DNA of 64,000 nucleotides, taken from NCBI GenBank assembly GCA_963665115.1, contig OY762007.1:480001-544000 (forward strand), read 5' to 3'. The notes under the pieces are model-generated. The model was not told the origin of the DNA. It did not search any database and saw only the letters and a program-made list of their open reading frames with translations. This DNA comes from an uncultured Rivularia sp. (GTDB taxonomy: Bacteria > Cyanobacteriota > Cyanobacteriia > Cyanobacteriales > Nostocaceae). Shown here piece after piece: positions 2,404 to 7,810 of the stretch (its first letter is position 1; each line of letters opens with the position of its first letter). Made by a program: the position numbers and the translations under genes.

Positions 2404-4662
2404 ATGAAAAAGTTGGCATTGCTGATTGGGGTAAGCGAATATGAGTACGACTTGAATCCCCTACCAGGTGCCCTTAAGGATGTTGATGCAATCCAACGTG
2501 TTTTACAACATCCAGATATGGGTGATTTTTCCCCAAATAATATCAAACTATTGAAAAATCCGCAGATACCAAATATGGGAATGGAAATTGAGAAAATTTT
2601 CTCTAATTGCCAGAAGCATGATTTGGTGTTGCTATATTTTTCCGGGCATGGGATTAAAGATGATAATGGCAATCTTTATTTAGCGAGCAGTCAAACTTGC
2701 AAGCATCCTAACGGGCAATTGATTACTTCAAGCACTGTCGCTGCAAGTTTTATACACAATATCATGGATAAAAGCCCTTCTCGGAGGCAAGTAATTATTC
2801 TTGATTGCTGCTTCAGCGGTGCTTTTGCTCGCGGTATGACGGTAAAAAATGATGGTGATGTAGATATTAAAAATCAATTGGGAGGGGAAGGAAGGGCAGT
2901 TTTAACTTCTTCTACTTCTACTCAATATTCTTTTGAGGAACAGGCATCCAATCACTCAATTTATACGCGCTACCTTGTCGAAGGAATTGAAAATGGTAAA
3001 GCCGATTTGGATGGTGATGGTGTAATTTCAGTTGATGAACTGCATGAATATACTCGCACTAGAATGCAAGAAGTTGCACCCAAAAGTAAACCTGAGATTT
3101 ATGCTTTCAAGGAAGGTTATAAGATTCAGTTGGCAAAAGTATGTCTAACTCAACAGCTAATTCCGATTGCTAAAAATCAAATAGGTTTCGGTGAATTAAA
3201 GTTGGGAAGAATGCTGCAAGAGGAAAGCGCTGAAGATGAATTGCAAGTTGATTATCTACCTAATTTTTTAGAACCGTTTGATTTTTTGATTAAAACTTTA
3301 ATTACCAAACTCACTGAAAACTTTTTTACTAACGATCGAGCAAATAATTTATCTATTGATTCTGAATTTGAAATTCAAATATTAGAAATTATCCGAGAAG
3401 CTTCTGAAGCCGATTTTGTATTTATACTCGAAAATGATAGTCAGGATAACTGTTTTGTTAAATCACAAAGTAATTTAGCAGAAAATATTGAGAAGAATGG
3501 CTATATTAATATACTAAACACAATAATTTTTCCAATTATCTCTCATGAATCAGTTTTTAATCCCTCGCATCACGGCACTTATAAAATTCATGAATATGCT
3601 AAAGGTTCTGCCAATGCTTTTGTGATGATACCGTTAAAAATGCCTCCGAATGCTGAAATTATGGTAATTTGCGGTGTGCCTCGAAATTCGCATTTATTAG
3701 GAAATGCCTACGGTAGGATTTTATCTAGTTTTTATCAAAGCAGTCAAACATTTTTACAACCTGCATTAGTAGAAGCCGCTATTATTGATTCTTTAAAAAA
3801 GGATTTTAAATTTGTATCTGAATCGTTATACGAAAGACGTTTTCAACTATTTTGCGAACGGTTGCAGAAAATGGTTGTTTATTTTGAACCCTTAATTTGC
3901 ATAGATGCCAATGAATTTTTTATCAGTGGTTGGGAAGCTTTAGCTAGAGATCCTGAAAGTTTAACTGCTCCCGTCGATCTATTTCAAGCCGCAGAATTAT
4001 GGGGTTCTCGATTCAAAGTTGAGTTAGACCAATATTTTCTGAAAGTTGCAGCAAAAAGCTATAAAGAAGCTAGGAAGTTAAAACAAAGAAGACTGAGTGA
4101 TGTTGTACCATTGTCAGTTAATGTATATCCGGAATCATTAGTTAGAACGGAATATTTTGAAACTGTTAGAGAAATTTTGGCAGAAGATATTATTTCACCA
4201 CGAAATTTGGTCTTAGAAATTTCTGAAAAATCAGAATTACCAGAGTTTGACGATAGTATTCGATTAGATAATCCTTTAGCTTTTTTCAAAAATAAACTTT
4301 TAGAATACGTACATCAATTTAATATTCGATTTGCTATCGATGATTTTGGAGTTGGTTATTCTTCAGTTTCTCGACTAGCTGGTTTGAACCCATGTCATGT
4401 TAAAATTGACCGCGAAATCCTGCATCATCAATCTAGCGATCTAATTATTCGTTTCGTTCATCAAATTGTTAAAGATAATAATTTATATCCACCGAATGTA
4501 ATAGTTGAGGGTGTAGATGAAGAAACTCCGATTAGTTTATATCAATTAAAAAAAATAGGTGTAACTTATATTCAAGGGCATATTGTTGGTAAACCAGAGT
4601 CAGAAGTTTATCGTCTCAGCCAGGAAAAATATATAGAAACTCAAGAAAATGATTTCAGGTGA
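2404..4662 (+). CDS. Caspase-like (C14) protease fused to a GAF-like region and an EAL domain
   Basis: N-terminal ALLIGVSEY, YFSGHG, ILDCCFSG. C-terminal WEALAR, SVNV, LEISE, IDDFGVGYSS, VKIDR, VEGVD, IQGH. Confidence 0.9.
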   Translation: MKKLALLIGVSEYEYDLNPLPGALKDVDAIQRVLQHPDMGDFSPNNIKLLKNPQIPNMGMEIEKIFSNCQKHDLVLLYFSGHGIKDDNGNLYLASSQTCKHPNGQLITSSTVAASFIHNIMDKSPSRRQVIILDCCFSGAFARGMTVKNDGDVDIKNQLGGEGRAVLTSSTSTQYSFEEQASNHSIYTRYLVEGIENGKADLDGDGVISVDELHEYTRTRMQEVAPKSKPEIYAFKEGYKIQLAKVCLTQQLIPIAKNQIGFGELKLGRMLQEESAEDELQVDYLPNFLEPFDFLIKTLITKLTENFFTNDRANNLSIDSEFEIQILEIIREASEADFVFILENDSQDNCFVKSQSNLAENIEKNGYINILNTIIFPIISHESVFNPSHHGTYKIHEYAKGSANAFVMIPLKMPPNAEIMVICGVPRNSHLLGNAYGRILSSFYQSSQTFLQPALVEAAIIDSLKKDFKFVSESLYERRFQLFCERLQKMVVYFEPLICIDANEFFISGWEALARDPESLTAPVDLFQAAELWGSRFKVELDQYFLKVAAKSYKEARKLKQRRLSDVVPLSVNVYPESLVRTEYFETVREILAEDIISPRNLVLEISEKSELPEFDDSIRLDNPLAFFKNKLLEYVHQFNIRFAIDDFGVGYSSVSRLAGLNPCHVKIDREILHHQSSDLIIRFVHQIVKDNNLYPPNVIVEGVDEETPISLYQLKKIGVTYIQGHIVGKPESEVYRLSQEKYIETQENDFR

Positions 4663-4745
4663 GATTGTTTAAGGGAAAATCTTTAATTTTCGGAGTTATT
4701 GCTCTTATAATTGTTTATGTAAGTATAATCTCGCAATAGGGCTGT

Positions 4746-5126
4746 ATGATTACTGACTTGACTGACGTGAAGCTGACTATTTCTTTTGTAGATCCAGATT
4801 TAGACGAGGAAGAAAAAGAAGCAGAGGTAATTAAGCTGCTTGCACAAATGAAGAATTTAGATGAAGTTGAAGAAGTTGGGCGGGTTGCCGAAGCGAGTGT
4901 ACCTCAAAACAGCAAGTCAATATCGGGTTATATCGCTGGAAAAGTTTGGACTTTCGTGAAATCTCAGAATATTAAACAAGTATGGGGATTTTTGAGCGAG
5001 CGTCTTGGTAATAAAGTTATTGAAGTAGAAGCAGAAGCTAATGGTAAGAAAATTAAGGTAAAAGCTAAAAATTCCCAAGAGTTACAAGAAGCAGTTAAAG
5101 CAGTGCAGGAATTTATTAAAAGTTAA
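4746..5126 (+). CDS. Small EACC1-like protein (caspase-associated component)
   Basis: DPDLDEEEKE...LLAQM...V..V...P.NSK followed by an amphipathic segment and IEVEAEANGKKIKVKA. Resembles the small proteins found beside cyanobacterial caspases; recognised by eye. Confidence 0.65.
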   Translation: MITDLTDVKLTISFVDPDLDEEEKEAEVIKLLAQMKNLDEVEEVGRVAEASVPQNSKSISGYIAGKVWTFVKSQNIKQVWGFLSERLGNKVIEVEAEANGKKIKVKAKNSQELQEAVKAVQEFIKS

Positions 5127-5474: not shown

Positions 5475-5804
5475 TTACCCCTGAAGATGATTTAAGCTAT
5501 ATCTAGCTCTAGTTTTTAGAATATTTAGCTGGTCAACCTTTGTCAATAAACTATCTAAAATTTCACTTTCATTATTTGACAGTTGATTATCGCTATTTCT
5601 TGCTAATAAATCATTTAATTCAGTTTGAGTGCTTGTAGATAACTTAATATCCGCTAAAGCTTGTAATTCATCTATACTTAAATTAGTTAAAAGTTCAGAA
5701 TCTACCACCGATTGATTCATCAATTTATGGTAAGTGTCCAAATCTAACAATACGCCTATTCTTTCTCCTTGGTTGTTGGTAAGATACTGTACTGATTCAG
5801 TCAT
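5475..5804 (-). CDS. Hypothetical antitoxin-like protein upstream of the HNH gene
   Basis: 109 aa ORF with VQYLTN..GERIGVLL N-terminus, closely coupled to the HNH ORF. Confidence 0.6.
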   Translation of the reverse strand: MTESVQYLTNNQGERIGVLLDLDTYHKLMNQSVVDSELLTNLSIDELQALADIKLSTSTQTELNDLLARNSDNQLSNNESEILDSLLTKVDQLNILKTRARYSLNHLQG

Positions 5805-7716: not shown

Positions 7717-7810
7717 CCAATTACCAATTACCAATTACCAATTACCAATTACCAATTACCAATTACCAATTACCGATTACCAATTACCAATTACCAATTA
7801 CCAATTACCA
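7717..7810. repeat. (CCAATTA)n STRR tandem array, about 13 units
   Basis: Directly visible, with one CCGATTA variant. Confidence 0.95.

Follow-up and report, generated by a model that had tools for sequence, protein, structure and literature searches.

What activates a caspase that carries a cyclic diguanosine monophosphate (c-di-GMP) phosphodiesterase domain in the same chain, and what does it cut? The question is raised by a locus near the start of a 64,000-nucleotide stretch of an uncultured Rivularia sp. (positions 480,001 to 544,000 of contig OY762007.1, assembly GCA_963665115.1; the window below), whose genome of 8.69 Mb is a single contig and whose nearest named relatives belong to Rivularia and Calothrix. 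Here one open reading frame (ORF) joins a caspase to a GAF-like domain and an EAL domain, and a small gene follows it. Little is known of what sets off cyanobacterial caspases or programmed cell death in filaments. Our answer is that the feature is real and widespread, and that the GAF-like/EAL tail is a constant unit whose head is swapped; this tail with its interchangeable immune heads is a more novel part than the window locus itself. The original prediction, made from the letters of the window, described features that we could confirm and overlooked this constant tail. The features concerned are as follows.

2404 to 4662, + strand: large ORF (752 residues) with caspase, GAF-like and EAL domains
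2404 to 3138, + strand: caspase domain of the EACC1-associated type, residues 1–245, with the dyad H82/C136 and acidic S1 residues D26/D134
3139 to 3270, + strand: low-confidence, fast-evolving linker, residues 246–289, with basic residues K257, K266 and R269
3271 to 3813, + strand: family-specific GAF-like domain, residues 290–470, from predicted topology and profile comparison
3814 to 4662, + strand: EAL phosphodiesterase domain, residues 471–745, plus the C-terminus, with the full set of catalytic motifs
4746 to 5126, + strand: small ORF (126 residues), a cyanobacterial EACC1 homologue, starting 83 bp past the large ORF

The predicted caspase and EAL domains were borne out by Pfam and NCBIfam, and predicted topology and hhalign favour the GAF-like reading of the middle region. 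The caspase matches Pfam Peptidase_C14 at residues 2–234 (84 bits) and NCBIfam caspase_w_EACC1 (NF047832) with 175.2 bits, above the cut-off of 140. Its SGHG (H82) and DCC motifs are both intact, and alignment to the D-S-C motif of metacaspases places the catalytic cysteine at C136, the second cysteine of DCC. Residue conservation was taken from 88 full-length fusions among the best 120 of 3389 protein matches; H82, C135 and C136 are invariant (88/88). The metacaspase alignment also shows two aspartates, D26 and D134. Such aspartates confer Arg/Lys specificity in metacaspases and MALT1, and from them an Arg/Lys cleavage preference is predicted here; the predicted caspase model aligns with MALT1 with a Z-score of 22.9 and a root-mean-square deviation of 2.5 over 205 residues. 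The EAL domain matches Pfam EAL (PF00563) at residues 487–731 with 97 bits. E511 is present in 88/88 full-length fusions and N573, E605, D646, D647, K667, E702 and Q724 in 87/88, with one gap; the catalytic residues are kept in 49–53 of 53 divergent family members, and the domain looks catalytically active.

The AlphaFold2 model of the fusion has a mean predicted local distance difference test score (pLDDT) of 85.8, with values below 50 at residues 250–281 of the linker, where the ratio of nonsynonymous to synonymous substitution rates (dN/dS) is 0.53 in the Rivularia group. The predicted topology of the middle domain is helix, two strands, helix, three strands, helix, which is the GAF-type order. 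Pfam and PDB sequence scans with the alignment of 46 members gave no significant match, and fold searches with the entire fusion returned matches to its EAL and caspase parts, which say nothing on this domain. Comparing the 46-row profile with the host's own GAF domains in hhalign gave a score of 31.6 (E = 1.7e-4, 35 columns), whereas none of 30 shuffles exceeded 17.4 and PAS scored 14.5. The ESM Atlas returned GAF clusters at 0.88, which we use as a lead only. We class the middle domain as GAF-like with moderate confidence.

The GAF-EAL part is found in 92 of 389 Nostocaceae genomes and in 15 of 401 genomes sampled across the class, counts for which only a few candidates per genome were scored. 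The loci analysed were 92 from Nostocaceae (14 + 78) and 12 from outside the family. Among 1.84 billion representatives the GAF-like profile finds 124 clusters at 50% identity; 16 of these, mostly fragments without a clear EAL domain, were excluded from the head counts. The 108 that have GAF and a clear EAL domain carry a caspase (55), TIR/SEFIR (9), a two-helix hairpin (7), EAD4 (4), CHAT (2) or no head or a fragment (31). Our loci likewise include EAD4 (L053, L263), CHAT (L054–L057, L265), a second caspase type (L049–L052) and EAD7 (L160). The identified heads are thus all immune effector or adaptor domains, or the unnamed helical hairpin, and a GGDEF motif was found in none of the 124 representatives. 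Control EAL ORFs from the same scans carry such heads in 0/76 cases and a GGDEF motif in 52/76, a comparison in which the head profiles, being built from family members, somewhat favour the family.

The family reaches beyond cyanobacteria to at least one planctomycete and many unnamed lineages; among 20 members that were looked up, one belongs to the planctomycete Engelhardtia mirabilis and one clusters with a cyanobacterium. A fast tree has caspase heads across a group of 76 rows with the named cyanobacterial members nested within it, and in the cyanobacterial tree some stand-alone GAF-EAL genes nest among the fusions. The fused caspase heads do not form one clade (approximately unbiased test, p = 7e-11, 38 versus 54 rows, quick tree), so that head exchange took place repeatedly. 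Head swapping therefore defines a family of about 100 clusters at 50% identity, mostly labelled ‘EAL domain-containing protein’ in databases. The two-helix head, of about 60 residues and without a Pfam match, marks one branch (P0388, P0403, P0405, P0407, P0412, P0416, P0423) and may be an unnamed effector-associated domain. Two arrangements of stand-alone GAF-EAL genes recur. At L067, L069, L070, L096 and L097 the next one or two genes encode caspases of the same type that carry other tails, and these five loci show no EACC1 match in the vicinity; at L077 and L083–L088 the GAF-EAL gene precedes a conserved pair of genes of 363 and 102 residues, which resembles an M4 peptidase with its inhibitor.

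The second question is the identity of the small protein. Taken alone, it stays below the Pfam EACC1 cut-off (12.4 bits, E = 0.16). Relatives at 50% and 54% identity exceed the cut-off over nearly the whole model; P0213 (25.0 bits, positions 3–104) and P0270 (24.7 bits, positions 4–104 of 107) pass the PF19953 threshold of 23.6. The family profile also matches two actinobacterial EACC1 proteins in hhalign (93.5%, E = 2e-7), both of which precede caspases on plasmids and one of which passes Pfam. A direct PF19953 search of five genomes gave 0/5, and Foldseek with the small-protein model returned no match at E ≤ 0.001. On the evidence of the relatives and the profile match, the EACC1 identity of the small protein holds, and judged by its sequence family the 126-residue protein is a cyanobacterial EACC1 homologue. 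The family is present in 289 of 389 Nostocaceae genomes.

The suggestion of cleavage near P.NSK is plausible, with the lysine of this motif as the candidate site: K57 is Lys in 185 of 187 homologues, and the acidic S1 residues D26 and D134 would suit it. K57 lies in a predicted flexible loop (pLDDT <50 at residues 50–61) just ahead of a putative hydrophobic segment, and a cut near it would give predicted fragments of about 6.4 and 7.7 kDa. The known EACC1 system has a central hydrophobic segment with a patch of small residues. G61 and G65 are conserved here, but the best 15-residue hydropathy of the window protein is only 1.06 and lies at its N-terminus (family range 0.79–1.77), and around the central segment the model shows a strand and then a helix. 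A complex prediction for the caspase dimer with the small protein scored 0.25 against a mark of 0.32, which counts neither for nor against an interaction.

Are the two genes a pair? We took 40 loci of the small-protein family: the 150 matches listed (of about 500) supplied 20 from their top and 20 at intervals further down. The next gene in 34 of the 40 is a same-strand EACC1-type caspase, and in two more it is a convergent one; these caspases carry GUN4, TPR, Clp_N, PP2C or unnamed tails. At one locus (L106) the EACC1 homologue precedes a TIR-like gene instead of a caspase, and at another (L128) it lies inside an ORF of 616 residues. Seen from the fusions, the survey called for by the original prediction gave an adjacent EACC1 gene in 11 of 43 loci with an EACC1-type caspase fusion, usually upstream, unlike the window. 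The breakdown is 2/13 in the Rivularia group including the window, both downstream (the other, L013, is frameshifted), 8/26 in other Nostocaceae, all upstream, and 1/4 outside Nostocaceae, upstream, with a weak 42-bit match. Decayed EACC1 remnants lie upstream of four further fusion loci, and most genomes with an orphan fusion have EACC1 elsewhere. A 122-residue gene that follows the L161 fusion resembled EACC1 on inspection and was rejected, as it gave no match. The presumed linkage of caspase and EACC1 is thus non-random, as both surveys indicate, but not tight.

The genome of the window has a single EACC1 gene and a single caspase of the EACC1 type, and they are these neighbours. Among 51 pairs, the module L105 is the top match for the caspase (71%) and a tied top match for the small protein (64%); over all 51 the Spearman coefficient is 0.50. 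The small ORF is unbroken, and its 90% identity to the L013 counterpart equals that of the caspase, which fits vertical descent. The caspase and EACC1 homologue look like a cognate pair at the window locus, yet the family needs no cis-linked EACC1, and we regard the locus as a rearranged variant of the EACC1-caspase kind, not a canonical member.

EAL domains dimerise, and proximity is what activates caspases, CHAT and TIR domains. Since these heads respond in this way, we read the constant tail as a switch. The reading that we favour, to which we would give a probability of roughly 45%, is that the GAF-like/EAL tail is a signal-dependent switch on the caspase, which cuts EACC1 near Lys57 and frees a pore-forming piece. 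The tail would dimerise or rearrange when it binds or turns over c-di-GMP taken from the cell's own supply, or else when a ligand occupies the GAF-like domain. The caspase so switched on would cut with the Arg/Lys specificity expected from D26/D134, and its target would be the neighbouring EACC1 homologue near K57. The C-terminal EACC1 fragment would then make a membrane pore and the cell would die, a step borrowed from 10.1101/2025.11.14.688446. Loci that no longer have an adjacent EACC1 gene would rely on a different substrate or on an EACC1 encoded at another place in the genome. The immune heads of the family, their repeated exchange, the lack of GGDEF motifs, the recurrent order of EACC1 and then caspase (34/40), the adjacency and remnants at fusions, the pairing of the only EACC1 gene with the only caspase of its type in this genome, the shared best match L105, and a Pepco gene all support this switch; the last is a Trypco2/Pepco gene at L163 (437–781) that overlaps the end of a family EAL gene whose head lies off the contig, and Pepco/Trypco2 is another family of protease-activated pores.

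Several observations weigh against a switch that acts on EACC1. There is no adjacent EACC1 gene in 32 of the 43 fusion loci, and the caspases of orphan loci are under purifying selection, with median pairwise dN/dS of 0.099, 0.077 and 0.101 in three groups and 0.141 in the linked group (medians over pairs that are not independent). Two genomes that carry the fusion, G694 (100% complete) and G701 (99%), give no EACC1 match to the window small-protein query. The gene order in the window, with EACC1 on the 3′ side, reverses the canonical one, EACC1 being on the 5′ side in nine orthologous loci. The EACC1-type caspase cut-off is passed by only 7 of 48 divergent full-length fusions, and about 40 of the 92 loci are caspase-less GAF-EAL genes, so that the tail is of use by itself. 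The GAF identity is moderate only, and the domain has no known ligand. The EAL domain looks catalytically active, whereas pure receptor EAL domains are often degenerate. Most genes around the 92 + 12 family loci are housekeeping genes, and neither a cyclase nor a defence island was seen there as a conserved feature; PADLOC yields single-domain matches only. No cyclase appears among the conserved neighbour clusters of the 92 loci, whose neighbours were not annotated one by one. As to carriage by mobile elements, a search for viral carriage gave four viral loci, all weak generic EAL matches, and one for plasmid carriage gave one partial record and none at full length. In the 4 of 64 parts of the metagenome that were scanned, about 8 of the 80 loci kept belong to the family, a number that does not allow neighbourhood statistics beyond cyanobacteria.

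The intact EAL domain and the conservation of the caspase without EACC1 are both accommodated if the phosphodiesterase is the output. An upstream cue, from EACC1 as a membrane sensor or from EAD/TIR recruitment, would activate the caspase; the caspase would cut its own linker, freeing or activating the GAF-EAL part, which would drain c-di-GMP or another cyclic dinucleotide and change the motility, biofilm or hormogonium state. The scheme carries over to a GAF-EAL tail the auto-proteolysis model of Kaur et al. (2020). The linker is basic and predicted to be flexible, the many stand-alone GAF-EAL genes begin inside it, much like a released tail, and the main text of PMC7159879 treats EAD4 and EAD7 as effector recruiters. 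TIR heads, for their part, could not free the tail by proteolysis, and in the sole EACC1 system tested, as described in the main text of 10.1101/2025.11.14.688446, EACC1 is the substrate and the pore while the C-terminal domain is the sensor. We consider this arrangement unlikely.

A protease gated by a signal but acting on another host substrate would explain the orphan fusions differently, the window EACC1 then being a leftover of an EACC1-caspase-GUN4 module at the tRNA-Ser. The relatives nearest to the small protein (63–64%) do precede caspase-GUN4 genes, several of them at the same tRNA; 11 of 12 related fusion loci in the Rivularia group have no EACC1 next to them, most deep-branching fusions have other caspase types, and G694 and G701 lack an EACC1 match. 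This has to be set against the canonical upstream EACC1 at nine fusion loci (one outside Nostocaceae) with remnants at four, against the intact small ORF that has kept pace with the caspase at 90% identity to L013, and against the window genome, in which no second caspase of the EACC1 type was found. A leftover EACC1 beside a protease with another target seems to us distinctly improbable. That the two enzymes were merely brought together by domain shuffling and work independently, the EAL domain being a GAF-regulated housekeeping phosphodiesterase, is very improbable: many stand-alone copies do sit at a conserved chromosomal site and cyanobacterial caspases fuse to many unrelated tails (GUN4, TPR, Clp_N, PP2C), but caspase heads dominate the deep 76-row part of the family tree and a GGDEF or ordinary sensor head was identified in 0 of 124 representatives.

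Two further features lie ahead of the fusion.

1994 to 2082, + strand: tRNA-Ser(GGA), called by ARAGORN, a syntenic site where EACC1-caspase modules recur
2105 to 2132, + strand: terminator-like hairpin between the tRNA and the caspase gene, from a consensus scan only

The hairpin scan gave four sites against a shuffle mean of 1.9. The 126-residue gene does start 83 bp after the large ORF, as had been said; its description as directly downstream of a tRNA was loose, since the tRNA stands before the caspase gene, from which it is separated by 321 bp that include the hairpin. The same tRNA-Ser(GGA) is common to 45 of the 92 GAF-EAL loci, mostly with ferredoxin, SNase and SuhB-like genes upstream; 30 of the 45 are caspase-less GAF-EAL genes outside the Rivularia group. 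It also occurs in 8 of the 40 EACC1-family loci, there with other caspase tails. The tRNA is an old syntenic site where modules get shuffled, with no sign of a recent island. We considered the tRNA as an integration scar and rejected this: the genome has no full second copy of the tRNA, only distant matches of 24–33 bases to its 3′ end, and the synteny is conserved.

The neighbours in the window are ferredoxin, SNase, a RelB-like gene and housekeeping genes. The RelB-like gene (5475–5804, − strand, 109 residues) is a weak match; a full match stands at this site in 6 of 14 related loci, and the region 3′ of the fusion is a variable spot. A single extra base near 4637 changes the last few residues of the large ORF relative to all close relatives. 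It is absent from the contigs of three of four runs and present in one, and is probably an assembly error that touches no domain. Extra single bases at 1040 and 7106 break or shorten the SNase gene and a dihydrolipoamide dehydrogenase-like gene; like that at 4637 they are missing from the contigs of other runs and are probably assembly errors. In two runs, contigs join 5224 back to 4526 through 260 other letters (depth 3 in X1 and 91.5 in X4), which may reflect a tandem duplication or a circle over the small gene; the assembly has one copy only. A tandem run of a 7-base unit lies at 7730–7810, ahead of a trpC-like gene; short repeats of this sort are common in heterocystous cyanobacteria.

The fusion probably connects a messenger of ordinary lifestyle control with cell death set off by a protease, and a literature search found no earlier link between c-di-GMP and a death protease. 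A wider proposal is that the GAF-like/EAL tail is an unrecognised immune receptor module, the EAL counterpart of SAVED, CARF or STING, which would read housekeeping c-di-GMP without a dedicated cyclase and turn on any of several exchangeable death effectors, namely TIR, CHAT, partners recruited by EADs, or a caspase together with EACC1 or Pepco pores. We hold this to be rather doubtful; if it is true, multicellular bacteria would couple lifestyle signals directly to programmed cell death or to defence against phages. The locus is a soluble two-protein system with a candidate ligand that can be bought and a predicted cut site, and is directly testable.

The expectation that this architecture is uncharacterised stands in part. 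Table 1 of PMC8283722 counts EAL as an accessory domain in 2 of 473 cyanobacterial orthocaspases, so that the combination of caspase and EAL, like other orthocaspases with accessory domains, has already been catalogued; unlike the present analysis, that entry has no GAF domain, EACC1 link, family analysis or function. The word ‘EAL’ is absent from the main texts of PMC7159879 and 10.1101/2025.11.14.688446, whose figures and supplements may list caspase-EAL proteins; it is likewise absent from the text of PMC8195603. The word ‘caspase’ does not occur in PMC3747582, on cyanobacterial c-di-GMP domains. Our literature search found no study of the caspase-GAF-EAL fusion or its family, although figures and supplements may list it.

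The nearest known system is the two-gene EACC1-caspase system (Kaur et al. 2020, PMC7159879; Evans et al. 2025, 10.1101/2025.11.14.688446), which the window locus resembles in its N-terminal caspase of the EACC1 type with a variable C-terminal part, its small adjacent EACC1 homologue and its multicellular host. In the tested example, according to the main text of 10.1101/2025.11.14.688446, the C-terminal domain joined to the caspase acts as the sensor, EACC1 is cut once and the C-terminal piece forms pores; the Ktedonobacter EACC1 gives fragments of 5.7 and 7.1 kDa, with a modelled cut at Asp49. The sizes predicted for the window protein are close to these. The window differs in that EACC1 is 3′ and not 5′, in its GAF-EAL tail, in the loss of the link in most orthologous loci and in a predicted cut at Lys57 instead of Asp49.

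The swapped heads invite a second comparison. SAVED-CHAT, SAVED-caspase, TIR-SAVED and TIR-STING are nucleotide-gated immune proteases and TIR effectors, and a fold search with the fusion also matches SAVED-CHAT (8tl0). Like these effectors, the family has a constant module with interchangeable caspase, CHAT or TIR heads; unlike them, the module in the window pairs a GAF-like domain with an EAL enzyme that looks active. It also differs from cyclic-oligonucleotide-based anti-phage signalling systems in that no cognate cyclase lies near the window locus or was seen as a conserved neighbour. A third parallel is with the trigger phosphodiesterases PdeR and PdeL of Escherichia coli: as in those enzymes, an active EAL domain may control the activity of its partner according to c-di-GMP turnover, but here the output would be a protease in the same chain and not a transcription complex.

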